A stretch of 16,878 bases of DNA. It comes from a virus. Each line of letters starts with the position of its first letter. The stretch's first letter is position 1. The notes beneath the pieces are model-generated. The model did no database searches, was not told the DNA's origin, and saw only the letters and a program-made list of their open reading frames with translations. This document shows, in pieces, positions 4,212 to 16,878 of this stretch. Location of the stretch: IMG/VR virus record IMGVR_UViG_3300045988_022585, one strand, 5' to 3'. The position numbers were made by a program, and so were the translations under genes.

Positions 4212-5875
4212 TTGCTTGCGACTTTGAGACAATCGTTAACGACGAGCGTACAAGAGTCTGGGCATGGTGTGGAGTACAAGTAGAGAGTGAAAAGATTGAA
4301 TACGGGACGAAAATAGAAGACTGGCTAACATACGCATTTAGTTATGGAGAAGTTTGCTACTTTCACAACTTGAAATTCGATGGTTCTTTTATAGTAGATT
4401 TTCTATTTAGATTAGGCTATGAATGGAGTTCAAAAAGAAGGCTTGATGAAAAGACATTCACAACTCTTATCTCTGATATGGGAATGTGGTATACTATCAA
4501 GATCAGAGGCGAAGATGGGCCAGGAGGATTGAAACGAGAAGTTACAATATATGATAGTTTAAAGATCATTCCAATGCCAATCTCTCAAATGCCTAAAACG
4601 TTTGATATTGGATTAGAGAAACTAGACCTAGATTATGAAGGAGACAGAGAAGAAGGCCACGAATTAACAGACCATGAAAAGCTCTATATTAGAAATGATA
4701 CATTGATTTTGGCACGGGCTTTAAAATTCATGCGCGAGCACAACATGAAGAAGCTAACAACAGCTTCAAATGCTATGAACGATTTTAAAACCCGTTTAGG
4801 AAAAGCAGAATTTGATAGACTGTTTCCTCCGTTAGATGCAATAACTGATAGAGATATTAGAATGAGTTATAAAGGCGGTTTTACATATCTCAATCCTGTT
4901 TACAAGAATAAGCCTATTGGCAGGGGACAAGTTTATGATGTTAATTCAATGTATCCATGGGCAATGAAGTTTTGTAAACTCCCTTACGGAGAGCCTGTTT
5001 ATTTCACTGGGCAATACGAAGAGGATGAAGGTTATCCATTATACGTTCAATCCCTCGTATGTGATTTCAAATTAAAACCCGGTTGTGTACCATCAATTCA
5101 GATCAAGAATAATTTTCATTATTCAGAAACAGAATACCTAAGAGAGTCAGAAGTAGAAACCGTATTAACTTTAACAAGTGTAGACCTAAAGTTGTTTTTC
5201 GATAACTATGATGTGACCGTATATTCATGGGAAGGTGGATATAAATTTAAAGGTATGGTTGGTATGTTCGCTGACTATATCGACTATTGGTATGAACAGA
5301 AGAACGAAGGAAAGAGAACAGGAAATAAAGGTTTAACTCAGATTGCTAAGTTGATGCTTAACTCACTGTACGGGAAATTCGGTGCATCTCTTACAGGAAG
5401 ATCAAAGATTCCACAGTTTGACAGAGATCAGGATAAGGTAACATATTACTATGGAGCAGAAGAGAGCAGAACAGCCTATTATGTGCCAGTGGCATCCTTT
5501 ATAACGTCTTATGCGCGTGATAAAATCATTCGTGCGGCTCAGCAGTTGGGTGAAAGATTTATTTACGCTGACACAGACTCACTTCACGTTAAAGGAACAG
5601 AACCGGCAGATATTGATATTGACGAATACAGATTAGGAGCGTTCAAGATTGAAGAAGAATTTGACCATGCTGTTTTCATTCGTCAAAAGACTTATATGGA
5701 AAGCATAAATGGAAAGAATGACGTAAAGTGCGCAGGAATGCCTAAGAATATCAAAGAAACAGTTACATTTGATAACTTCAAAGAAGGCGCTACTTTTGAA
5801 GGCAAGTTAATGCCTAGAATAATACCAGGTGGGACAATCCTGCGAGAAACAACGTTTAAAATCAAGTCAAAATAA
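4208..5875 (+). CDS. Protein-primed family-B DNA polymerase (phi29 gp2-like); N-terminus extends upstream of the track ORF and the start codon is non-canonical or unresolved
   Basis: The frame stays open back to TAG at 4202-4204 and encodes T-I-I-A-CDFET (ExoI). Other motifs are YFHNLKFDGSF (ExoII), YIRNDTLILARAL (ExoIII), DVNSMYP (motif A), KLMLNSLYGKFG (motif B), YADTDSLH (motif C) and RQKTY / VKCAGMP. All of these closely match phi29 polymerase. Confidence 0.95.
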   Translation: MIACDFETIVNDERTRVWAWCGVQVESEKIEYGTKIEDWLTYAFSYGEVCYFHNLKFDGSFIVDFLFRLGYEWSSKRRLDEKTFTTLISDMGMWYTIKIRGEDGPGGLKREVTIYDSLKIIPMPISQMPKTFDIGLEKLDLDYEGDREEGHELTDHEKLYIRNDTLILARALKFMREHNMKKLTTASNAMNDFKTRLGKAEFDRLFPPLDAITDRDIRMSYKGGFTYLNPVYKNKPIGRGQVYDVNSMYPWAMKFCKLPYGEPVYFTGQYEEDEGYPLYVQSLVCDFKLKPGCVPSIQIKNNFHYSETEYLRESEVETVLTLTSVDLKLFFDNYDVTVYSWEGGYKFKGMVGMFADYIDYWYEQKNEGKRTGNKGLTQIAKLMLNSLYGKFGASLTGRSKIPQFDRDQDKVTYYYGAEESRTAYYVPVASFITSYARDKIIRAAQQLGERFIYADTDSLHVKGTEPADIDIDEYRLGAFKIEEEFDHAVFIRQKTYMESINGKNDVKCAGMPKNIKETVTFDNFKEGATFEGKLMPRIIPGGTILRETTFKIKSK

Positions 5876-5900
5876 TTGTCGAGCCGATTGGAAAACGAAC

Positions 5901-5929
5901 TTGACAAGTGTTGAAAGAAGGTGTACAAT
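5901..5929 (+). promoter_or_regulatory. Near-consensus sigma-A/70 promoter (probable late promoter)
   Basis: TTGACA (5901-5906), an exact 17-nt spacer, then TACAAT (5924-5929). It sits in the polymerase-ATPase intergenic gap. Confidence 0.7.
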
Positions 5930-5935
5930 AGTAGT

Positions 5936-6046
5936 GGGGCAGTATATGGTTTTCGTTTCCACGATTCGGGAGTACAACGGCGAAGAGTCGGCCTGGATGT
6001 GACTGGGGTTTGTATCCTGTGACGCTACAACTGTATATATGCCCCG
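5936..6046 (+). ncRNA. Candidate structured RNA (pRNA-like packaging RNA or regulatory leader)
   Basis: About 100 nt downstream of the promoter have no ORF and no SD and look more GC-rich than the flanks. GGGGCA(G)TATAT (5936-5947) pairs with ATATATGCCCC (6035-6045) as a closing helix of 6+5 bp with one bulged G. Internal hairpin candidates lie at 5979-5993 and 5995-6017. The region is immediately upstream of the packaging ATPase. Confidence 0.35.
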
Positions 6047-6056
6047 CTCTAATATT

Positions 6057-7046
6057 ATGAGTAAATCAATGTATTATGACATAAACAAAACCTTGTCATA
6101 TAATACTCTATTTAATTTCGTTGTTGGTCCTCGTGGTGCAGGTAAGACTTATGCGGCAAAAAAGCGAGCTATAAGTAACTTCCTTAAAAGGGGAGAGCAA
6201 TTTGTTTATTTACGCCGCTATGATACTGAGCTTCCTTCAAACACAATTAAGAACTTCTTCGATGATGTGATGCAGGAGTTTCCAGATCATGAGTTTAAGT
6301 CAAATCTAGGTATATTCAGAATAGATGGCGCAATAGCCGGATGGTATTTTCCGCTTTCTAAAGCCACTATGATGAAATCAACTCCATTTCCCAATGTAAG
6401 CATGATAATCTTTGACGAGTTTATTATTGACGTGGGCATGGTGCATTACCTTCCTAAAGAAGTAACAGCTTTTCTTGAATGCTATTCGACTGTCAGCAGA
6501 GATCGAGACATACCAGTATTTTTCCTCTCTAATGCAATTACATTTACTAATCCATATTTTCTTTACTTTGATATAACTCTTGAAGAAGGCCAGAGACTAA
6601 AGATAAAAGGTGACATATCTTTAGAGCTTGTGGAAAATCCAGCTTATACAGATCATGTAAAGAATACGAGATTTGGCAAATTGATTGCTAATACAGAGTA
6701 CGGAAAATATAACATGGAGAACAAGTTTCTTAGAGATACGGATACCTTTATTACAAAGATGTCAAATAATTCTTTCTATGTTGCAACGCTTATTATGCAG
6801 AATCAGGAGTTTGGCATTTACCGCGATATGAAAGATGATTTAATGTTTATCTCTGAGAAGATCGACCCGACCGCTAAGAAGTTAGTATTGGACACTGATT
6901 CACATAACGGTGATACTCTACTTGTTAAAATGCGAGGAAGTGTTGTTATCAATATGCTTCTTGATTACTACACAAAAGGCAATGTTCGGTTCGAGACACA
7001 GAAAGCTAAAAATATGGCCATTGATTTGTTTAGGAGGTTAATATAA
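6057..7046 (+). CDS. DNA packaging (encapsidation) ATPase, phi29 gp16-like; start at ATG 6057 (or 6039)
   Basis: Walker A is GPRGAGKTY and Walker B is MIIFDEF. By eye there is extensive similarity to phi29 gp16 (LSYNTLFNFVVGPRGAGKTY, GEQFVYLRRY, QEFPDHEF, YPNVS-like, LSNA...NPYF). MSKSMYYD from ATG 6057 aligns with the phi29 N-terminus MDKSLFYN. Neither ATG has an SD. Confidence 0.93.
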   Translation: MSKSMYYDINKTLSYNTLFNFVVGPRGAGKTYAAKKRAISNFLKRGEQFVYLRRYDTELPSNTIKNFFDDVMQEFPDHEFKSNLGIFRIDGAIAGWYFPLSKATMMKSTPFPNVSMIIFDEFIIDVGMVHYLPKEVTAFLECYSTVSRDRDIPVFFLSNAITFTNPYFLYFDITLEEGQRLKIKGDISLELVENPAYTDHVKNTRFGKLIANTEYGKYNMENKFLRDTDTFITKMSNNSFYVATLIMQNQEFGIYRDMKDDLMFISEKIDPTAKKLVLDTDSHNGDTLLVKMRGSVVINMLLDYYTKGNVRFETQKAKNMAIDLFRRLI

Positions 7047-7375
7047 TGCCGTTCGAGTTTAACACAGACGCTTGGAACGAGTTTACAAAGAAAGTTCTTG
7101 AAGCCAATGGAGATCAAGCCACGCTTACCACTCTTTTGAGTGATATGCAGGATACATTTACAACAGGAATTACAACGCAGGGAGAACTGGATAAAACAAA
7201 CAAGAGTTTAAAAGAAGAGAATGGAAGATTGAAAGAAGCAAATATGGCTCTGTTTCTTAGAGTTGGTGAACAGAAAAAGGACTCTCAGGAGCCTGAAAAA
7301 TCCGGAGAGCCTAAACCCGGCGAAGAAGGTCACGCCGTAGACAAATTTTTGGATAATCTATATAAGGAGAAATAA
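7046..7375 (+). CDS. Head scaffolding protein (phi29 gp7-like), 109 aa
   Basis: AGGAGG at 7032-7037 precedes the start, and there is a TAATG overlap with the ATPase stop. The protein is coiled-coil and acidic. ELDKTNKSLKEENGRLKEANMALFLRVGEQKKD resembles phi29 gp7 [33 protein letters not shown]. It lies directly upstream of the capsid gene. Confidence 0.7.
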   Translation: MPFEFNTDAWNEFTKKVLEANGDQATLTTLLSDMQDTFTTGITTQGELDKTNKSLKEENGRLKEANMALFLRVGEQKKDSQEPEKSGEPKPGEEGHAVDKFLDNLYKEK

Positions 7376-7378
7376 ATT

Positions 7379-8416
7379 ATGGCTAGTAACAAGACTCCGC
7401 AAGTTGCTTCTGCTGAGATGCTTAACAGCATTCGAGCAGACGCTTCTGATGCTTATAAGAATGCGGTCCCCGTAGCAACTCCGTATAACCTCGCTGACGT
7501 TGGCAACCCTATTCTCACTTACGAGGCAGTTGCAAACGAATTTCTGAATGCCCTTGTTAACAAAATTATTATGACTCTCGTTATCAGAAAGACTTGGAGC
7601 AATCCTCTGGCAATGCTTAAAAAGGGCACTGAGGCGCTTGGTCTTGACGTTGAAGAGATTCAGGTTAACCCCGCTAACGCAACCGCGTTTGACGGTACGA
7701 CTGAAAATGGCTATTCTGACATTTTGAAGCCCGCTCTGCCTGATGTGAAGGCAGCTTGGTATCGTCTGAACCGTCAGGATAAGTATAAGGTTACTATCAA
7801 CAATGAAATGCTGACTAACGCATTCACTTCCTGGAATACTCTGGAAGGCACGATTGCCGCTATTGTTGACAGCCTGTATAATGGTAATACCATTGACGAG
7901 TTTAAATACACAAAGCAGCTCATTGATAATGCTCTGACTGGAACAAAGCTCAATACAGTTACTGTTACGGCTCCTACTAATAGAGACACGGCGGCGGCTT
8001 TCCAGCAGACTATTCAGAACCTCTCCCTCCAGTTTCAGTTTCCTTCTACCGCATATAATAACTACACTAAAATGGGTGGTACTGGAGGTCGTACAACCTG
8101 GAGTTCTATTGAGGACCAGATTATCATTATTAACGCGGAAGTTGCGTCCGCTGTTGGTGTTCAGTTCTTGGCGGCAGCATTTAATCTGTCTTACGCTGAG
8201 TACGCAACGAAGCAGATTATCGTGGATAGCTTTGCCGCTAGTTCTAAGTGCCTCGCAATTCTGGCTGATGTGAACGCTTTCCAGATTAGAGAAAAACTGC
8301 GTCGTATGACCAATTTTTATAATGCTGGTAATATGGCATGGCAGTATTATTTCCATTGTTGGGATACCTTCTCCCTGTCTCCGTTCCATAACGCTGTCGC
8401 TCTGGTTACTGAGTAA
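7379..8416 (+). CDS. Major capsid protein (phi29 gp8-like, lacking the C-terminal Ig-like domain), 345 aa
   Basis: AAGGAGA at 7363-7369 precedes the start. By eye, NSIRADASDAYKNAVPVATPYNLADVG...LVIRKTWSNPLAMLKKG matches phi29 gp8 [27 protein letters not shown]...VVIRQVSLNNPLKKFKKG. C-terminal WQYYFHCWDTFSLSPFHNAVALV matches [23 protein letters not shown]. Confidence 0.9.
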   Translation: MASNKTPQVASAEMLNSIRADASDAYKNAVPVATPYNLADVGNPILTYEAVANEFLNALVNKIIMTLVIRKTWSNPLAMLKKGTEALGLDVEEIQVNPANATAFDGTTENGYSDILKPALPDVKAAWYRLNRQDKYKVTINNEMLTNAFTSWNTLEGTIAAIVDSLYNGNTIDEFKYTKQLIDNALTGTKLNTVTVTAPTNRDTAAAFQQTIQNLSLQFQFPSTAYNNYTKMGGTGGRTTWSSIEDQIIIINAEVASAVGVQFLAAAFNLSYAEYATKQIIVDSFAASSKCLAILADVNAFQIREKLRRMTNFYNAGNMAWQYYFHCWDTFSLSPFHNAVALVTE

Positions 8417-8466: not shown

Positions 8467-10509
8467 ATGCCTATTCTTTCCCCAACAACTAGAATATACC
8501 TATGTGAGAATGCAGGTATTACAAAAGATCATAAAGCATATTTTAGCTCCAATTCTGCAATGATCTCTTATCTGCAAGGCAAAGTAGCGCATTCGTTTAC
8601 AAACTGTACTTATCAGAGAGCTGATGAGCGAGAGTACACGCAGTTAAACATTGATTACTATGATGCCTTAAAATGTGATGTAATGTTTTGGCAAAATCCG
8701 AACAACAGCACAAAATATCTGGTTGCACTTATTACCGGCTTTGAATACTTGAATGAAGGAACAACTAGAATTTATTTTGAAATTGACCCTTATTCAAGTT
8801 TTTGCGGGGACATTGAATGGCAACCATGTTATGTAGAAAGGGAGCACGTTACAGGCGATTGGGTTGATGGTCAACCGAACTGGAATAATTGTGGTATTTC
8901 TGAACCAATTTCAGGCGCTCCTGTTGTAGTAGAAAACGAATTGACATATCCTCTTGTGCCTACAAGATATGTTATCTTGACTCCGTATAATGAGGACGGA
9001 CAAGTATCCATTCACGGCAATACTTTAGGCGGCATCTATTCAGGAATGAATATGATTGTTAAAAATACTGCCGAAGAGGTTGACGATTACCTGAATACTG
9101 TTGCGGTTCATATTGCCACAACACTGGATAACATTGGACCTATTCTTTCTGTTCCCTCTTTCTTCCTGAATGATAAAGAATGGGAAATGGGCACTTTACA
9201 GTCTCCATGGATAACGCTTAATGGGCATTTCAATAATGCAAAGGTGTACACTTCTCAATATACGATGCTGAGAGTAGAAGGAGCCGCCGGGAGACAAAAA
9301 GAATTTCTTCCCGAATTGATGGGACAGAACGGCCTCGCTACTCCACTCACTCAGTTATTCGCTAAGGGTGGGTTAATTGGAGGCATTGGTGGTTTCGCTG
9401 TTTATCTAAAGAACTATAAGGGTATTGAAACAAGTCTTGAAGATGCTTATTTAATTACCGATATGCCGTCAGGCGTTTGGGTTGGTAATAATCTTTTGGA
9501 TAATTGGCAGAACGCCATTATGAAAACAATTAGCGGAGGATTGAAGGGAGCCGCAGCCGGAAGCGTGGCAGGCCCAGGAGGAACAGCATTGGGCGCACTA
9601 GGAGGAGCAGCTTTATCTCTCGTAGGTATGGCAGATCAAATGGTTGCCTCCGGTGGTCAGGTAAATACAACAGCTAATGCCGCAGTTGCTTTTGGAGCTT
9701 ACAGAGTGTGCACACGATGGTATATTAGCCCCACTCAAATCATGGAAGCAGTTGACGATTTCTTTGATCGTTTCGGCTATGCCGTGGGGCTTCTTAAAAT
9801 TCCAAATGTAAACACTCGTCCTATTTGGAATTATGTGAAAACAAGTGAAGCTCACATTGGCGGAGACATTCCAGAGCATTATAGAGAGCAAATTTGTGAT
9901 ATGCTGAATAATGGCGTCACATTCTGGAATGTAAATAGACGTTCAATCGGTGATTTCTCTAACCCATCCGCTAATCAGATTGAGAACTATAGTTATGATG
10001 ATTTCTTAGAAGACCCACCCTTCCAGGAGTATGACCCGCCTAAGCCAGACCCGGAACAGCCGGACCCACCTGCCGCTGATGATTTTAGTGTTCTTCCAGA
10101 CGAAGTTGTGGAATATTCTTTAGCTGCTGATGGAGATACTTATTTAAGTAAGAATTTCAAAGTCAGAGAGTTCAGATGCCACGATGGTAGTGATAAAATT
10201 CTTGTGAGTAAAAGACTTGTTGAGCTGTTACAAATCATTCGTGACCATTATGGAGTACAAGTCATTATTAACAGCGGATATAGAACCACTTCCCATAATG
10301 CCGCTGTTGGTGGAGCCGCTAAGAGTCAACATCTTTATGGCCGTGCCGCTGATATTGTAGTAACTGGACAGACTCCGCTTAATGTTTATAATTGGATAGC
10401 CAATAACGTTATGCCTTCTGGAAAGGGGGGTATGGGGTGTTACAGATCACAGGGTTTTGTCCACGTTGATGTTCGTCCCTCTGGTTACTGGAGAGACAAC
10501 AATGTGTAA
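8467..10509 (+). CDS. Tail knob / distal tail tube protein (phi29 gp9-like) fused to a C-terminal peptidase M15A-type cell-wall hydrolase domain, 680 aa
   Basis: N-terminal VMFWQNPNNSTKYLVALITGFEYLNEGTTRIYFEIDP...YVEREHV resembles phi29 gp9 [36 protein letters not shown]...IVREHV. There is a Gly/Ala-rich hydrophobic segment (about 9535-9660). FGYAVGLLKIPNVNTRPIWNYVKT resembles gp9 [24 protein letters not shown]. A Pro-rich linker (about 10010-10085) is followed by SGYRT..HN..VGGA..SQH..GRAADI...FVHVDVR (10141-10506). Confidence 0.85.
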   Translation: MPILSPTTRIYLCENAGITKDHKAYFSSNSAMISYLQGKVAHSFTNCTYQRADEREYTQLNIDYYDALKCDVMFWQNPNNSTKYLVALITGFEYLNEGTTRIYFEIDPYSSFCGDIEWQPCYVEREHVTGDWVDGQPNWNNCGISEPISGAPVVVENELTYPLVPTRYVILTPYNEDGQVSIHGNTLGGIYSGMNMIVKNTAEEVDDYLNTVAVHIATTLDNIGPILSVPSFFLNDKEWEMGTLQSPWITLNGHFNNAKVYTSQYTMLRVEGAAGRQKEFLPELMGQNGLATPLTQLFAKGGLIGGIGGFAVYLKNYKGIETSLEDAYLITDMPSGVWVGNNLLDNWQNAIMKTISGGLKGAAAGSVAGPGGTALGALGGAALSLVGMADQMVASGGQVNTTANAAVAFGAYRVCTRWYISPTQIMEAVDDFFDRFGYAVGLLKIPNVNTRPIWNYVKTSEAHIGGDIPEHYREQICDMLNNGVTFWNVNRRSIGDFSNPSANQIENYSYDDFLEDPPFQEYDPPKPDPEQPDPPAADDFSVLPDEVVEYSLAADGDTYLSKNFKVREFRCHDGSDKILVSKRLVELLQIIRDHYGVQVIINSGYRTTSHNAAVGGAAKSQHLYGRAADIVVTGQTPLNVYNWIANNVMPSGKGGMGCYRSQGFVHVDVRPSGYWRDNNV

Positions 10510-10520
10510 GGAGGATTATT

Positions 10521-10961
10521 ATGCAAAATGAAGCTAGGATTTATAGTAAATCTCTTGAAGGTGATAAACAGCTGACTTCCTCTTTTAAGGTAAAAGAGTT
10601 TGCCTGCAATGATGGGAGTGACGTTATTCTGATTCACCCTGATCTTCCAGCCGTATTGCAGAATATTCGCAATCAGTTCGGAAAACCCATTATCATTAAC
10701 AGTGGTTACAGGACTCCCGAATATAACAAGAAGGTGGGAGGCGCTACTCGCTCTCAGCATTGTTATGGTACTGCCGCTGATATTGTGGTTGACGGCGTTT
10801 CTCCCGCTTCTGTTGCCATTGCCGCTGAAAAGGCATTGAAAAAGACTGGATATCCTGGTGGGATTGGAATCTATAAGAGTTTTGTTCACGTTGATGTCAG
10901 ATCAAAGAGGTATAGATGGGACCAGAGAAGCGGTAAAGAAGTGGCGGTGAGCGGGTTTTGA
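10521..10961 (+). CDS. Endolysin, peptidase M15A-type (zinc D-Ala-D-Ala carboxypeptidase-like fold), 146 aa
   Basis: AAGGAGG at 10505-10511 precedes the start. The motifs are SGYRTPEYNKKVGGATRSQHCYGTAADIVV...FVHVDVR. It is paralogous to the C-terminus of the tail knob protein and is followed directly by a holin-like gene. Confidence 0.85.
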   Translation: MQNEARIYSKSLEGDKQLTSSFKVKEFACNDGSDVILIHPDLPAVLQNIRNQFGKPIIINSGYRTPEYNKKVGGATRSQHCYGTAADIVVDGVSPASVAIAAEKALKKTGYPGGIGIYKSFVHVDVRSKRYRWDQRSGKEVAVSGF

Positions 10962-11164: not shown

Positions 11165-11456
11165 AACAGCTAAAAACATTTCTCTAATCGCTGGAGCGGT
11201 TGCAGTTGTTTGGAGGGTATTTACCTTTACTTCCAATATCGGTAAAAAGATTGACACTAACTCTGACGAAATCAGAGATATAAAAGAAAAGTTAAATAGA
11301 GATTATGACAAGATAGATAAGTTAAATCAAGCAGATAAGCATATTTGTCTGTTCCTGGTTGATATATCAGATCACATGATAAATGGAAATCATATAGACA
11401 AACTGAAAGAGACAAGGAAGAATGTTATCACTTTCTTATCTGAGGGGGTAGATTGA
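11130..11456 (+). CDS. N-terminally membrane-anchored coiled-coil protein (lysis accessory / antiholin-like?); start at 11130 or 11148
   Basis: A single hydrophobic segment (ISLIAGAVAVVWRVFTF) is followed by a charged helical region. The gene overlaps the holin 3' end. Its function is not recognisable. Confidence 0.5.
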   Translation: MEGIKEMEALLETAKNISLIAGAVAVVWRVFTFTSNIGKKIDTNSDEIRDIKEKLNRDYDKIDKLNQADKHICLFLVDISDHMINGNHIDKLKETRKNVITFLSEGVD

Positions 11457-12409
11457 TGTTTCCTCTTATGGATGCCTTCCCCATTCTTTCACTACCTGAT
11501 TTTAGAGTTAACACTAGCGGATTAACTAAACGGCAAACAAAGATGCTTAATACCATTCAATTTGCCGAAGTATTTTCCAGGCTAATGAATGTTATGCTTT
11601 CCAGGTTTAAATGGAATGGGCTTCCGGCGTCGTGCAATGAAAGGGCATTAGAAATTACTCTAGCATTCTACGGTTACGCATTGTTCTTTAATGACGAGAA
11701 TATCGGCTTTGCTCATACTCCTTGTACATTATCCGGCCCATTTAATATCTACTATGAGAGTGTTAATAGGCGGGCATACAGTTACAACTATGAGAAGAAC
11801 TACACGATTGATGATAGTGTGCTCATTAGGGGTAATTTAACAATGACTCCTGACTATCTCATTCTAATGAATTACGCTCCAAAGATTGCAGACGCCATTA
11901 GAGCTATTGACGTTCATACGCAGACTTTGAAAAAGCCTTATATGGTTTCTTGCGAAGAGCGTCAAAAGAACTCTGTTATTAGAGCTTTAAATGACATTGC
12001 AGACAATGAAGTAACTGTTCTGGCCGTTCCGAATTCAGGAATCAATACTTTGAGTGTTCTCACGACTGGAGTACAAAGCTACCTGGGAGATATGTGGGCG
12101 AACGTCAAGAATATGTTCAATCAGGTGTACTCCGCTTTAGGAGTAGCAAATGAGTTTACTTCCAAAAAGGAAAGACTAGTTGTAAGTGAGAGTCAGGGAG
12201 AACAAACGCCTATTAGACACTCTCTGGAAAGCGAGCTTGAATGCAGACGTAAAGCGTGCGAAGAGATTAACAAGATGTTCGGCCTTAATATTTCTGTTGA
12301 AGCAAATCAGCTTGAACAGTTTAAGGAAGAGCAGATTGAAGACCTATTGGCAAAGATGGGACAGCAGGTGGAAGGAGGGAATGAAAGTGTTTCCATGGAA
12401 TCCGATTAA
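11456..12409 (+). CDS. Portal / upper collar connector protein (phi29 gp10-like)
   Basis: GAGGGGG lies upstream, and ATG 11456 overlaps the previous stop as TGATG. [28 protein letters not shown] resembles phi29 [37 protein letters not shown]...[18 protein letters not shown] resembles KKERMVTDE...REEACEKINELYGLNVKV. Confidence 0.9.
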   Translation: [317 protein letters not shown]

Positions 12410-13457
12410 CCCTCGTAACTATGAGCTAGGCCAGCTTGTATCCACTGGCTATAAAGTCTTTGATGATACATGGAGCACCTATATTCCCGAACACAAAAGC
12501 GAGTTGTGCGCTAAGATTGTACGGCATTATTTCTTTTACGAAATTGGGCAGGATACTCCGGATAAGTTCAAGCTATATCTAAACGAAACACTTGAACGTA
12601 TCATGCCATTTTACAATCAGTTGTACAAAAGTGAGCTGATTAAGTTTGACCCCATTATGAATCATTTATTGGAGACGAATGGAAGGTCTATTGAAAATGT
12701 GCTGAGAAAAGCACAGAAGGGAGATAGCGAAGTAATTAGCGCATTAGAGAACTTCGCTAAATCCTCTAAAGGTATCACCAACTCCACACAGGGGACAAAG
12801 CAAGGTATCACAGAGCAAGAAGACTACAAGAGAGATTACACAGAAAACAAAGAGAGAACAGAGAACGAAACAACCGGAGTCAATAGGAAATTGGATGGCA
12901 CGGTCACAAGAGACGGTACAACTGATACCACGACTAATGAGACGGTTGCCGAAAATCATAACGGAGACAAGCGGTTTGCAGACACGCCGCAAACTACCGT
13001 TGGGGATAATCCAAATAACGCCTATATGACGAACTTCACAAAGGAGAGTCAAACCAGAGATACCACAACGAATGCAACATCTAACAGTACAATCCACCAA
13101 ACAGACGAAACAGACGAGACGGAAACAACTGATACTGACCGTAAATTAAATGGAACAGAAGATACGGTTGGAAATATCACTGATGAACGAACCAAAACTT
13201 CACAGCTCAATAGAGATGTTGATACAAAAGCTACTAATGATGGATTTGAGAACGGTTCTAGTAGCCAGGATACAAGCAAGGCAAAACAGACTCTTGAAGA
13301 CGAGTCTCAGACAACTGATGAAGGAAAGCATGAAATCATTTCCGGATTTATGAATATGACTCCATCTCAGCTTTTGCAAGGTTTCCGTGAAACATTCCTG
13401 AACATTGACGAACAAATCATTAAAGAGCTTCAATACAATTTCATGGAGGTATTTTAA
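12381..13457 (+). CDS. Lower collar protein (phi29 gp11-like) with a long Thr/Asp/Glu/Asn-rich central region; start at ATG 12381 or GTG 12387
   Basis: AGGAGG at 12373-12378 precedes the start. The gene follows the portal, as gene 11 does in phi29. N-terminal segments are NPRNYELGQL..FDDTWSTYIPEHK..IVRHYFFYEIGQDTPDKF..IMPFYNQLYKSE, and there is an RFADTPQ motif. The track start at 12186 would overlap the portal by more than 200 nt. Confidence 0.7.
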   Translation: MKVFPWNPINPRNYELGQLVSTGYKVFDDTWSTYIPEHKSELCAKIVRHYFFYEIGQDTPDKFKLYLNETLERIMPFYNQLYKSELIKFDPIMNHLLETNGRSIENVLRKAQKGDSEVISALENFAKSSKGITNSTQGTKQGITEQEDYKRDYTENKERTENETTGVNRKLDGTVTRDGTTDTTTNETVAENHNGDKRFADTPQTTVGDNPNNAYMTNFTKESQTRDTTTNATSNSTIHQTDETDETETTDTDRKLNGTEDTVGNITDERTKTSQLNRDVDTKATNDGFENGSSSQDTSKAKQTLEDESQTTDEGKHEIISGFMNMTPSQLLQGFRETFLNIDEQIIKELQYNFMEVF

Positions 13458-13458
13458 T

Positions 13459-13773
13459 ATGTTTACTGTTGACGAAATTATCCACCTGTGGGAAGAGGGC
13501 AAGATTACTACCGAAGAGGCGAACAGACGCCTTGCGGAAATTGGCTCTCGTGTTCGTCTCGATGATACTAAGGAAAGCGGCTGGACCGAAGAGGAAATGA
13601 AGGAAGGTTTCATTCCTGGCAAGCCCGGTGAGCCTGTTCAGAGAGAGCTGGATAGAAGCCGCCGTATGGATATGGCTGGTAAGACCGCTTTCCAGAAGGT
13701 CAACGGAAAAATCTACAAGGTGTGGTACAACGAGGATGGCTATTTCCAGAAGGCTGCCCGTGCGAAGAAGTGA
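13459..13773 (+). CDS. Hypothetical late protein (104 aa)
   Basis: GGAGG at 13446-13450 lies 8 nt upstream of ATG 13459, so the track start at 13405 is unlikely. It sits between the collar and tail-fibre genes. No family was recognised. Confidence 0.6.
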   Translation: MFTVDEIIHLWEEGKITTEEANRRLAEIGSRVRLDDTKESGWTEEEMKEGFIPGKPGEPVQRELDRSRRMDMAGKTAFQKVNGKIYKVWYNEDGYFQKAARAKK

Positions 13774-13784
13774 GGTAATACACT

Positions 13785-16544
13785 ATGAGTAATTGCAATC
13801 ACTACAAATGGGATGGCCATGGACATCCTCTGACTGATGGTTATTGCTATCCGGAGGGCTGTTGCCCCCCGGAGGGGCACAGACCTCCGCCCTGTGAGCC
13901 TGAGTTCTGTGCTATTCCTGTTCCCCCTCCCATTATGCCTGTTGTTCCACCTCCTGTTCCCGGCTTCAATCCGCAGGCTCAGATGGGGGCTGTAATTGAA
14001 AAGACAAATGAATGTATCAACCGTTGGAATTACATTCAGGCAAATTGCTTCAAGGCTCTGAACGATTGTGTAGGTGCGGCGAAAACTAGTCCTGTTTACT
14101 ATGATGACTGTGAAGTGCATCTTGAGCAGGGTTATTCCAGTGATGACAGCGCCGTTTACCATATCGTGCGTGTAAACAAGTTTGACAAGGCGGGTTGTCC
14201 CATTCGCGTCAAGTTGGGTCTTGCGTATGATAACCCCACGAACTCTAACGTTCGGCAGAGTATGCACGATTATAGCTTTGTCAAGAGTGCGAACGTCATT
14301 ATGACAGCTGTCAATCCAGCTCAGGAGGGATGGAATGGGCCGGCTATGTGGCGCGGCATGGCGATTGCCGGAACACCTAACACTGAGGGCTATATCGCTG
14401 GTTTCAATTCACTGGGCACTTTGAAGGTTTACAAGGGAAATGTCAAAACCACTAACCTGTGGCAGGATAAAATCGTTGATATGATTGGGGCTGTTACGCC
14501 CATTATTCTGGATAGCGAAATCACTGAGCAGGCAAAGACGCTGACCACTAAGAAAGCTATTACTGCTATCGGCTACAATAGTGGTTGCGGGCAGACTATC
14601 CTTTTCAATGTTGGCATTACTGAAAATCCCGGTATGCAGGGAATCACGGTTGCAAATATCCTGAAAGAGATGGGATGCAATACTGCTGTTATTACTGCAA
14701 TGCAAGATGCGACTGACGAGCCGTCTATTGGTATGCAGTATTTGGGCCGCTGGACTGATGTCCCCTCTCAGTACAATGACCCGCAAAACGTGGCCTTCTG
14801 GTATGTAAGCAAGCGTACTGAATGCGGATTCAAGAATGACTTTGAGACGGAGATCGCTAATCTAGTTCAGAGCACTGGCTATTGCGCTAACGGTATCACT
14901 GAGCTGAGAGACAAGGTGGAGAATGCGCAGGAGACGGCTGACGAAGCCCTCTCCCTTGCGCAAGATAACGCTGATAAAATCGCAACTATTCAGGGCCAGA
15001 TCACTGAAATTTATTCTAAGATTGATGCTCTGAACACTCGTCTCACTAAAGTTGAAGGCGATATTACCACGATTAAAGGACAGATCGACACAATCAATCA
15101 GCAGATTACCACTATTAATCAGGCTATCTCTAGCATTAGAGAAGAGATCAGTGACATAACTGAGCAGATTGCAGGTATTACTAGCTCCATTACTGATCTT
15201 ACGAATAGGGTTAAGACGGTTGAAGGTAAGGTAACAACCATTGAGGACAATATTAGCGATATTCAGGATAACATCACTAATATTGAAGATGATATTACCA
15301 ATATCAACAACGCTCTGGATGACATTAAAGGCGGAACAACTGAACTTCCTTACGTTAAGAAAGCCGGAGATACTATGACCGGCGCTCTTAATATGGGAAG
15401 TAATAAGGTGAGTGCTGTGGCAACGCCTACTGATGACGCAGACGCTGCCACTAAAAAGTATGTTGATGATAAGGTAAGCGGAGCAGAATACAAATTGCCT
15501 ATCGCTGGACCTACTAAACTTGGCGGCGTGAAAGTAGGTAGTGGTCTTAATATCACGGCTGACGGTACACTGAGCGCAACCGGAGGCGGCGGAGGGGTTG
15601 GAGATTATCTGCCTCTGGCTGGTGGTACAATGTCTGGTGACATTGTTATGAGTGATGGTACTAACATTAACTTCGACCAGAGCGGAAGTATCTATAATGA
15701 TAATGGTAGCGTTGTGGTAAAAAGCAATGGCTCTGTTGTCGGCATGGGTACTCAGGTAAAGATCCAAACCGAAGGCGGTGACCCTATTCAGATCAAGAAT
15801 GTGGCGAATGCTACTGAAAATGGGGATGCTGTTAACAAGGGGCAGATGGATGGTGAACTTGACCCCATTAAGACCGATATTAACGAGGTCAAAACTGATA
15901 TTACTAATATCAAAAACGGCACGGACGCTCTGCCTTATGTTAAGAAGAGCGGGGATACGATTAATGGAAATCTTCAAATAAATGGAAATGTAACCATTGC
16001 TAAAACAAGCGATCTTAGATTCACTGATGGCGGAAGTATTACGGTAACGCCTGGAGATGATACTAATCAAATTAGTATCGGAAACCTGCATGGTGCTGTA
16101 GCAGTTAAATCTAATGGTGATATCCTTCTCAGTGGACAGGGGGCTATTACATGTAACAACGACCAGATTAAGAATGTAAAAGACCCTACGGAGGCGCAGG
16201 ATGTTGCTACGAAGGCTTATGTGGATGCAAATGCGGGAGGAATTAGTGTTTACACTTATTCCAGAAACCAAAATGTAACCTTTGGAGGAAGCGGTTTCAC
16301 ATTATCATCTGATATTATCATCCCGGAAGGATTTCAACCGGCTGATACAAACAATCCGACAGCTTGCCTTATGTATAACTTTAATACAACTGCAAGTAGA
16401 TGCCTGTTTCTAGGCGGCCCAATTACTTATGACAGTAAAAGCAGAACCTATAATATCAACTTGCATTGGTATAGGAACACACAAGACACCGATGTAATTG
16501 GAAATTATAGTGTTAACTTTATTATCTTTATTAAAAAGGTATAA
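13785..16544 (+). CDS. Tail fibre / appendage (receptor-binding) protein, 919 aa, multidomain
   Basis: GAGG lies upstream of ATG 13785. The N-terminus is Cys/His/Pro-rich and is followed by a globular domain. A coiled coil of about 147 aa with an Ile heptad pattern spans 14889-15330. Repeated tail-fibre motifs are present: LPYVKK(A/S)GDT(M/I)xG twice, LPLAGGTMSGDI, and I/V-x-NV-x-(D/N)-(P/A)-T-x(3-4)-DA/V-x-(T/N)K-x-(Y/Q)-(V/M)-D three times. Confidence 0.85.
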   Translation: MSNCNHYKWDGHGHPLTDGYCYPEGCCPPEGHRPPPCEPEFCAIPVPPPIMPVVPPPVPGFNPQAQMGAVIEKTNECINRWNYIQANCFKALNDCVGAAKTSPVYYDDCEVHLEQGYSSDDSAVYHIVRVNKFDKAGCPIRVKLGLAYDNPTNSNVRQSMHDYSFVKSANVIMTAVNPAQEGWNGPAMWRGMAIAGTPNTEGYIAGFNSLGTLKVYKGNVKTTNLWQDKIVDMIGAVTPIILDSEITEQAKTLTTKKAITAIGYNSGCGQTILFNVGITENPGMQGITVANILKEMGCNTAVITAMQDATDEPSIGMQYLGRWTDVPSQYNDPQNVAFWYVSKRTECGFKNDFETEIANLVQSTGYCANGITELRDKVENAQETADEALSLAQDNADKIATIQGQITEIYSKIDALNTRLTKVEGDITTIKGQIDTINQQITTINQAISSIREEISDITEQIAGITSSITDLTNRVKTVEGKVTTIEDNISDIQDNITNIEDDITNINNALDDIKGGTTELPYVKKAGDTMTGALNMGSNKVSAVATPTDDADAATKKYVDDKVSGAEYKLPIAGPTKLGGVKVGSGLNITADGTLSATGGGGGVGDYLPLAGGTMSGDIVMSDGTNINFDQSGSIYNDNGSVVVKSNGSVVGMGTQVKIQTEGGDPIQIKNVANATENGDAVNKGQMDGELDPIKTDINEVKTDITNIKNGTDALPYVKKSGDTINGNLQINGNVTIAKTSDLRFTDGGSITVTPGDDTNQISIGNLHGAVAVKSNGDILLSGQGAITCNNDQIKNVKDPTEAQDVATKAYVDANAGGISVYTYSRNQNVTFGGSGFTLSSDIIIPEGFQPADTNNPTACLMYNFNTTASRCLFLGGPITYDSKSRTYNINLHWYRNTQDTDVIGNYSVNFIIFIKKV
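15246..15329 (+). repeat. Four degenerate 21-nt tandem units encoding the heptads DNISDIQ / DNITNIE / DDITNIN / NALDDIK
   Basis: Read directly from the sequence as gacaatattagcgatattcag gataacatcactaatattgaa gatgatattaccaatatcaac aacgctctggatgacattaaa. Confidence 0.8.
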
Positions 16545-16565
16545 TAAGTTATAGGAGAATAAGAG

Positions 16566-16696
16566 ATGAAAATTGTCAAAATCGAGGAAATGGTAATTGA
16601 CCTCGTAGAAACTGTGATTTAAACCTTGTTGGTAAGATTGCAGAGAGTGAAATTACTCTGGATAGATTTCAGAAGCTGTATAAGTATTATATGTAA
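16566..16696 (+). pseudogene. Small terminal ORF split by a frame change (18-aa ORF 16566-16622 plus a start-less continuation 16622-16696)
   Basis: AGGAG at 16553-16557 lies 8 nt upstream of ATG 16566, giving MKIVKIEEMVIDLVETVI-stop. The -1 frame continues as NLVGKIAESEITLDRFQKLYKYYM-stop and contains no start codon. A hairpin follows. Confidence 0.35.
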
Positions 16697-16702
16697 ACGG
16701 TG

Positions 16703-16737
16703 AAGAAAAGAAGGCTCTTAATGGGCCTTCTTTTCTT
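16703..16737 (+). terminator. Strong hairpin at the end of the rightward transcription unit
   Basis: AAGAAAAGAAGGC (16703-16715) pairs perfectly with GCCTTCTTTTCTT (16725-16737). The 13-bp stem can be extended by C-G and U-G pairs. The 3' arm is U-rich but there is no separate U tract. Confidence 0.55.
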
Positions 16738-16744
16738 GCGTCAA

Positions 16745-16783
16745 TATAACACTGTTATATAACACTGTTATATAACAGTGTTA
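16745..16783. repeat. Three 13-bp-spaced palindromic boxes AACA(C/G)TGTT (operator-like array) next to the right ITR
   Basis: The units are TATAACACTGTTA (16745-16757), TATAACACTGTTA (16758-16770) and TATAACAGTGTTA (16771-16783). Positions 16761-16782 form a perfect 22-bp palindrome. Confidence 0.9.
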
Positions 16784-16844
16784 TCTGTAACATAGGTGGA
16801 GTGACATTTTAAATGCTTCTGCGAGAAGGGTTAATAAAGCGTCC

Positions 16845-16878
16845 AGTATTTTTATGTAGGCGTGTGTACATATACCTC
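16845..16878. repeat. Right inverted terminal repeat (34 bp)
   Basis: It is the exact reverse complement of 1-34. Confidence 0.95.

Follow-up and report, generated by a model that had tools for sequence, protein, structure and literature searches.

The question raised by this locus is what occupies the gap between the DNA polymerase gene and the DNA packaging ATPase gene of a phi29-like phage. The stretch analyzed, IMG/VR record IMGVR_UViG_3300045988_022585 (hereafter the window, meaning the whole 16,878 bp), comes from the human gut and carries exact 34-bp inverted terminal repeats (ITRs), which mark it as a complete linear genome of the kind replicated by protein priming. The gap is 181 nucleotides (nts) long, lies between the polymerase gene (4370-5875) and the start of the gp16-type ATPase gene at 6057, and marks the boundary between the replication and the morphogenesis modules. 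Our analysis indicates that positions 5936-6045 are almost certainly a real, conserved structured RNA feature, and that this RNA is quite probably a divergent prohead, or packaging, RNA (pRNA). The gene set expected of a pRNA-bearing phage is present, namely a gp16-type ATPase, a gp10 connector, a PF03175 polymerase and the ITRs, and the ATPase shares 39% identity with phi29 gp16 across its entire length.

A preliminary description of the locus, made from the sequence alone, had proposed a helix that closes the whole segment. This helix, hereafter the A helix, was recovered between 5936-5951 and 6029-6045 in the minimum free energy (MFE) fold, in the centroid fold and in the comparative consensus described below, and its 3′ strand does bury the ATG at 6039, with the A of this codon bulged. 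The internal hairpins needed revision. The one placed at G5979-C5993 (5 bp, AGAG loop) is off register, the conserved E hairpin being C5978-G5990 with 4 bp and the loop GAAGA, and the one placed at G5995-C6017 is absent from the consensus, in which 5992-5998 is the 3′ strand of the C helix (paired with 5964-5970) and 6002-6020 forms the D hairpin. Within the family, no other sequence is conserved as strongly as the E loop, which occurs as GAAGA, GGAGA, GAUGA or GUGAAA. The direct repeats GTGAC and TACAAC exist and gained no comparative support as features. The segment had also been called free of open reading frames (ORFs), which is loosely true; two mechanical ORFs, 5829-6002 with a GTG start and 6039-7046, overlap it. 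Folding energy, to which the preliminary description had looked as a check, was no better than that of shuffled sequences, with z = -0.92 for 5936-6060 and z = -1.34 for 5936-6045. As these values are insignificant, the case that the structure is more than chance rests entirely on the comparison with relatives.

Relatives were collected by scanning IMG/VR first with the window ATPase and then with an ATPase alignment, which gave 146 loci. In many of these, whose ATPases are only 35-68% identical to that of the window, inspection by eye showed the same upstream layout: a consensus promoter, a G-rich 5′ end, an internal hairpin closed by a purine loop, and 5′ and 3′ ends that can pair with each other. 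In MAFFT alignments of divergent members (A1, A3 and A4), the strands of the C helix and of the terminal helix were one column out of register, and these alignments were excluded from the pair counts. For this reason, the covariance model was seeded from the window clade alone (four distinct sequences), with a structure taken from constrained folds, and was then iterated. In a search set of 100 sources (535 kb, both strands), the models R1, R2 and R3 gave 13, 24 and 40 matches, respectively, and all 40 matches of R3 are full length, on the ATPase strand and upstream of a gp16-type ATPase. The window RNA scored 128 bits with R1, 112 bits with R2 and 106 bits with R3.

With the filters off, the family model found a single match in the window (106 bits); the next best, in a coding region, reached 18 bits, and no other pRNA candidate was found in this genome with this model. 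The left end (35-403), the other place considered for a pRNA, contained no model match and no excess structure (z = +0.21) and was dropped. The earlier remark that no other obvious pRNA locus is visible thus held.

Two further features were seen among the relatives. In some relatives (L025, L030, L104-L107, L110-L114, L139 and L141), the interval between the RNA and the ATPase start contains another large hairpin or an evident intrinsic terminator; this element may correspond to domain II of pRNA or be simply the terminator. In addition, many relatives (e.g., L019, L021, L042, L095, L104 and L117) carry a U/A-rich bulge of 3-5 nts (UUAAA-like) in the 5′ strand of the A helix. This bulge splits the outer and inner A segments at a position equivalent to the ATPase-binding CCA bulge of phi29, where the window clade has UU/CUAC instead.

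Pairing was counted in an alignment of the 40 sequences (A8) that was fitted to the model structure, which inflates the paired percentages somewhat. Standard pairs filled 88.3% of the pair cells, compared with 56.1 ± 0.9% when the 3′ partners were shuffled (0/500) and 43-45% when the partners were slid by 1-3 columns, and 44 of the 45 pairs had changed on both sides. The two terminal A helices were 94% and 92% paired, with all 16 pairs changed on both sides, and the inner A segment (helix 3; 96.5%) and the E hairpin (helix 7; 92.5%) each had four of four pairs changed in this way. RNAalifold, run on A8 without a supplied structure, returned the same helices with a covariation term of -11.25 kcal/mol and compensatory changes in 34/34 pairs. 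Two things speak for a real covariation signal in the helices despite the fitted alignment, namely the slid controls and the variety of distinct pair types. The comparison of homologous intergenic regions suggested in the preliminary description came out in favor of the helices.

The same tendency was observed within the window clade. Its sequences are near-identical, and all their helix substitutions preserve pairing; the C helix, for example, reads CGGG/CCUG, CUGG/CCGG, CCUG/CAGG and CCAG/CUGG in four phages. The two remaining substitutions fall in the CE bulge, where one is unpaired and the other preserves a proposed kissing pair as G-U. We also considered whether the segment encodes protein. 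This was ruled out, as the helix substitutions are compensatory and not codon-patterned, and the overlapping ORF 5829-6002 has no Shine-Dalgarno (SD) sequence.

Beyond the helices, complementarity was also seen between the CE bulge and the D loop. In the window, ACAA at 5974-5977 complements UUGU at 6010-6013, and the family shows the classes ACAA/UUGU, ACCA/UGGU, ACUA/UAGU, AUCA/UGAU, GUCA/UGAC, GCAA/UUGC and GCUA/UAGC, together with UCUU/AAGA, ACCGA/UCGGU and GGCAUA/UAUGCC, with some G-U wobbles beside the E stem. In four loci (L014, L021, L146 and L102) there are only three CE/D pairs or a mismatch. Three swap tests were performed in which the loops were defined without using complementarity, and the CE/D pairs are not part of the covariance model. 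For the loops defined by model columns in 30 non-redundant RNAs, the mean Watson-Crick run was 4.13, compared with 2.97 ± 0.16 after swapping (0/20000). When the CE bulge was compared with the first hairpin loop of the constrained MFE fold, the values were 3.65 and 2.58 ± 0.15 (0/10000), and when it was compared with the 32 nts following the C helix, they were 4.24 and 3.44 ± 0.13 (0/5000). An automatic rule that took the best local hairpin as the D loop chose the wrong hairpin in about half of the cases, which diluted the signal, still significant, and this rule was replaced by the constrained folds and the model columns. The CE bulge and the D loop change in step across lineages.

The promoter is conserved together with the RNA. 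The near-perfect promoter of the preliminary description (TTGACA, a 17-nt spacer, TACAAT) was confirmed at 5901-5929 as the best sigma-70 match in the genome; it scores 11/12 and is listed first of only three sites with this score on both strands of the whole genome. The predicted transcription start, G5936, is base 1 of the RNA. Of 43 family copies, 36 are preceded by a promoter scoring 9/12 or better, the -10 element of which ends 6-8 nts before the 5′ end defined by the model, and many have a perfect one (12/12, TTGACA-17-TATAAT). From this spacing, the A helix begins at the predicted +1. At the other end, 16 of the 43 copies have a U tract (at least five U in 8 nts) directly after the last base of the RNA, and the whole RNA would thus act as a terminator hairpin. 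The three copies distant from gp16 (L115, L131 and L033) are all among these 16; in them, the RNA is 400-600 nts upstream of gp16, ORFs lie in between, and 6-7 of the next 8 nts are U. Because of this distance and the U tract, the three copies look like stand-alone genes.

In the window, the RNA ends 11 nts before the ATG at 6057. The alignment to PF05894 starts at residue 7 of the 6039 ORF, which corresponds to this codon. Nearly all other genes of the genome carry AAGGAG or GGAGG, and the lack of an SD sequence in the segment, noted earlier, was confirmed for all three candidate starts of gp16 (ATG 6039, 6057 and 6069). Many relatives outside the window clade, on the other hand, have a normal SD sequence and a spacer of 20-80 nts after the RNA, outside the structure.

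We compared the RNA with the pRNA of phi29, whose left genome end was fetched for this purpose. The order of elements in phi29 is the A 5′ strand, C 5′ strand, CE bulge, 4-bp E hairpin, C 3′ strand, UUU, D hairpin and A 3′ strand, and the window RNA has the same order as this domain I, with a three-way junction of A, C and D and an E hairpin capping the C arm. The lengths are also similar (117-120 nts for domain I of phi29 and about 110 nts here). Both RNAs have a long A helix formed by the two ends and interrupted by a bulge or an internal loop, a CE bulge on the 5′ side of the C helix with a 4-bp E hairpin directly 3′ of it, and a D hairpin; both phages encode gp16 and gp10. In pRNA, the CE bulge (right-hand) and the D loop (left-hand) are complementary, pair between molecules and build the prohead ring (PMC5066667). 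Co-varying complementarity of these two loops over 3-5 bases and a strong host-type promoter are shared as well (PMC5066667). The two RNAs differ in the E loop, which is UUGAGU in phi29 and of the GAAGA type here, and in the bulge C18C19A20, which in phi29 binds the ATPase and is required for packaging; the window has no CCA but has the A6039 bulge and the UU/CUAC loop instead. Unlike the phi29 pRNA gene, the RNA gene of the window heads the morphogenesis genes.

Cultured phages carry the RNA as well. In the Hungatella phage CH17P1 (OP172758.1), a match of 26 bits with the loops GCUA/UAGC was found at 13687-13790 in the gap between polymerase and ATPase, and the Clostridium phage CI461P1 (NC_073481.1) has a weak one (17.6 bits, ACCA/UGGU) in the same gap. 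In the Clostridium perfringens phage phiCP7R (L151, JQ729990.1), the match (16472-16571, minus strand, 27.7 bits, GCCA/UGGC) lies in the interval between ORF23 and ORF22 and precedes the head genes, on the strand opposite to gp16 and 10 kb away from it; the published description of C. perfringens podophage genomes names no pRNA (PMC3362512). Judging only from these cultured carriers, which infect Hungatella and Clostridium, the hosts of the RNA-carrying phages are probably gut Clostridia and not Bacillus. In the Eggerthella phage LE1-1, a gap of 210 nts precedes the ATPase region, and the best score with the filters off was only 5 bits. The family model found no match in the Cp-1-type genome SOCP. 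A pRNA has been proposed for the Streptococcus phage Cp-1 (Martin et al. 1996, as cited in PMC6266182), also a non-Bacillus phi29-like phage, and Bacillus-derived covariance models do not find this putative pRNA reliably.

The pRNA-like reading is thus supported by the phi29-like gene set, the covarying helices, the element order of domain I and the covarying CE/D complementarity. Several observations weigh against it. Contrary to the expectation that the Rfam model of pRNA would detect the segment, RF00044 ('3WJ core of Phi29 bacteriophage pRNA'), which aligned to the phi29 pRNA with 145 bits, gave no match in the window either at the gathering threshold (100 bits) or at E ≤ 10, and none at E ≤ 10 in a 151-nt slice (5920-6070); the only Rfam match on this slice was Ms_IGR-2, with 11 bits, which we regard as chance. 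RF00044 also had no match in eight non-Bacillus phi29-like genomes, and R3 had none in the left end of phi29; similarity of sequence or profile was thus not detectable in either direction, and by its sequence the window RNA is outside the RF00044 profile. Domain II (helices B and F), which is conserved in Bacillus phages and dispensable in vitro, is missing in the window, as only 11 nts separate the RNA from ATG 6057. The pRNA of Bacillus phages is encoded at the left genome end, whereas the window RNA is in mid-genome between polymerase and gp16 and on the gp16 strand. No U tract or terminator was found after the RNA in the window, and given the short distance to gp16, a discrete RNA would need processing. 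The gp16 residues proposed to contact pRNA (named in PMC7672431) are conserved in a mixed manner (F240 and W254 are both Y, but K236 is N and K239 is F) and were not used as support. The folding energy of the single sequence is unremarkable, as described above. When the four kissing pairs were counted at fixed columns, 74.5% were paired, compared with 67.1 ± 2.4% after shuffling (4/500) and 31-57% after sliding, which is only a moderate difference; this is because the composition of the loops is conserved and because the register shifts by one column where the E stem has 5 bp. Finally, the sequences fit CE/D pairing between molecules and a pseudoknot within one molecule equally well.

The other explanations have to account for the same data. 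That a chance promoter and a fortuitous hairpin happened to meet in the gap between polymerase and ATPase, with no function, would agree with the insignificant z-scores and with the number of promoter-like sites in the window, which is only slightly higher than in shuffled sequences (49 compared with 42 ± 5.6); the 40 full-length and correctly placed homologues with co-varying pairs and the promoter conserved in register with the RNA have already refuted this idea, and we give it practically no weight. A more serious candidate is a structured leader acting in cis on the gp16/late-operon mRNA, where it would control transcription read-through or the translation of gp16. The gp16 protein might, for instance, bind the leader of its own mRNA, and the RNA would not be a part of the motor. 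The window itself is suggestive of this: the RNA ends just before the gp16 start without a U tract, gp16 alone among the major genes has no SD sequence, the A helix covers the in-frame ATG 6039, and most family members are directly upstream of gp16. However, the leader explanation is difficult to reconcile with the three distant copies that look like stand-alone genes, with the phiCP7R copy on the other strand, and with the many relatives in which a normal SD sequence and spacer follow outside the structure, and it offers no reason why two distant loops should co-vary or why the fold should match pRNA element by element. We therefore consider it unlikely. A leader controlling ATPase translation from 6057, which the preliminary description gave as the alternative, may be an additional role in the window clade but is not the common function of the family, because of the distant copies with U tracts and the phiCP7R copy that is not beside gp16.

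The RNA may also be a conserved small RNA of the phage with another function in trans, such as regulation of host or phage genes or a decoy against host defence, with CE/D forming an intramolecular pseudoknot. Structure and covariation are equally compatible with such a tertiary pair, a strong promoter suits any abundant small RNA, and the missing RF00044 match is in line with it. The family, however, is restricted to phages with a gp16-type ATPase and is linked to the packaging and morphogenesis module, its elements follow the order of pRNA, and the complete genome has no other candidate for the RNA scaffold that a phi29-type gp16 needs for docking to the prohead (PMC5066667, PMC7672431). The chance of this explanation being correct appears small to us.

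Taking the RNA as a pRNA, we infer its packaging function from phi29, and the steps would be as follows. The host-type promoter at 5901-5929 would start transcription at the first base of the terminal helix. By analogy, CE/D pairing would be intermolecular, and five or six copies would assemble into a ring at the empty prohead's connector vertex, where gp10 is the presumed attachment site. The E/CE/D region would touch the prohead, and the A helices would point outward and dock the gp16 ATPase encoded 11 nts downstream; the motor would then package the protein-capped linear genome. In the window clade, where no U tract follows the RNA and gp16 lacks a ribosome-binding site, transcription probably yields the RNA as the 5′ end of the gp16/late-operon transcript, from which host RNases would release or trim it. 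Similarly, the 174-nt pRNA of phi29 occurs as a 120-nt form in purified proheads.

In the papers examined, pRNA is regarded as limited to phi29 and its Bacillus relatives. A 2024 review considers pRNA unique to phi29 and its Bacillus relatives (PMC11476376), a 2025 survey that used phi29, GA1 and DLc1 as seeds added 12 pRNAs, of which the named ones belong to Bacillus phages (PMC12670572), and "no evidence for a pRNA" was the motive for a study of the Lactococcus phage asccphi28 (PMC7823558). We found no prior description of the present RNA family in open-access papers and bioRxiv, and it is not recorded in standard databases. ROOL and GOLLD RNAs are also associated with phages or mobile elements and form homo-oligomers through kissing loops (PMC12990946), but their size is several times greater, their architecture is unrelated and they have no link to gp16, so that they serve as an analogy only. 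Dozens of gut and environmental phages, including the cultured Hungatella and Clostridium phages, very probably carry a second RNA family, distinct in profile, with the architecture of pRNA.

If this is true, RNA scaffolds of this kind are common among phages, a point that matters for the question, raised in PMC7672431, of whether pRNA was there from the beginning or was recruited late. Research on RNA self-assembly and RNA nanotechnology would gain over 40 natural variants, among them at least nine different kissing-loop pairings. The family model would let annotators catch a gene that is currently missed, and CH17P1, CI461P1 and phiCP7R would provide phage-host pairs for testing the prediction of a packaging RNA. 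More tentatively, and with clear doubt, it could be proposed that a packaging RNA is a general and ancient component of the motors of protein-primed podophages, heading the morphogenesis genes in many gut and environmental lineages, and that in the window clade it is the processed 5′ leader of a gp16 mRNA without SD sequence. In that case, a single transcript for the RNA scaffold and the ATPase would couple the supply of two motor parts in this clade.

The features of the RNA and of the surrounding genome are listed in Table 1. All large genes of the window are on the plus strand, and an unannotated record from human faeces (MT835826.1, 'Bacteriophage sp.') is 95% identical to it.

Table 1. 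Positions of the RNA elements, the promoter and the main genes in the window
Feature	Position	Strand	Remarks
Inverted terminal repeats	1-34 and 16845-16878		exact, 34 bp; GAGGTATATGTACACACGCCTACATAAAAATACT
Protein-primed type-B DNA polymerase	4370-5875	+	PF03175
Sigma-70-type promoter	5901-5929	+	-35 TTGACA 5901-5906, 17-nt spacer, -10 TACAAT 5924-5929
pRNA-like non-coding RNA, predicted domain-I equivalent	5936-6045	+	110 nts; covariance-model match full length (1-110); covariation
A helix, 5′ strand	5936-5951	+	5936-5941 with 6040-6045; 5942-5951 with 6029-6038
Internal loop UU/CUAC	5952-5953 / 6025-6028		splits outer A helix from inner A segment
Inner A-helix segment (A2), CGUU	5954-5957	+	pairs with 6021-6024; adjoins three-way junction; constrained fold
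C helix, 5′ strand	5960-5970	+	5960-5962 with 5999-6001; G5963 bulged; 5964-5970 with 5992-5998
CE bulge, AGUACAA	5971-5977	+	terminal ACAA (5974-5977) complements D loop; proposed kissing site
E hairpin, CGGC-GAAGA-GUCG	5978-5990	+	4-bp stem; purine loop GAAGA 5982-5986
C helix, 3′ strand	5992-6001	+	constrained fold and comparative consensus
D hairpin	6002-6020	+	6002-6003 with 6019-6020; U6004 bulged; 6005-6009 with 6014-6018; loop UUGU 6010-6013
A helix, 3′ strand	6029-6045	+	one-base bulge A6039, the A of in-frame ATG 6039
gp16-type DNA encapsidation ATPase	6057-7046	+	Pfam PF05894 (Podovirus_Gp16), 1e-82
Scaffold protein	7046-7375	+	
phi29-type major capsid protein	7379-8416	+	
Tail knob fused to M15 peptidase	8467-10509	+	
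M15 endolysin	10521-10961	+	146 aa
gp10-type head-tail connector	11453-12409	+	Pfam PF05352, 7e-35; PHROG upper collar connector
Lower collar	12186-13457	+	
Long coiled-coil tail or appendage protein	13785-16544	+	

Three other features of the genome were noted. Two M15 peptidase domains stand side by side, one at the C-terminus of the tail knob (8467-10509) and one in the separate endolysin (10521-10961). A near-perfect A/T-rich palindrome with an internal direct repeat (16737-16788, AACACTGTTATATAACA ...) lies just inside the right terminal repeat; it gave a spurious mir-2804 match and weak matches to the family model, and could be a terminator or a replication-origin element. In addition, a full-length match to the Pistol self-cleaving ribozyme (RF02679, 53.3 bits compared with a gathering score of 34.5) was found at 851-926 on the plus strand, in the gap that separates two small early ORFs (665-874 and 960-1241); the ribozyme is predicted to cleave the early polycistronic transcript.

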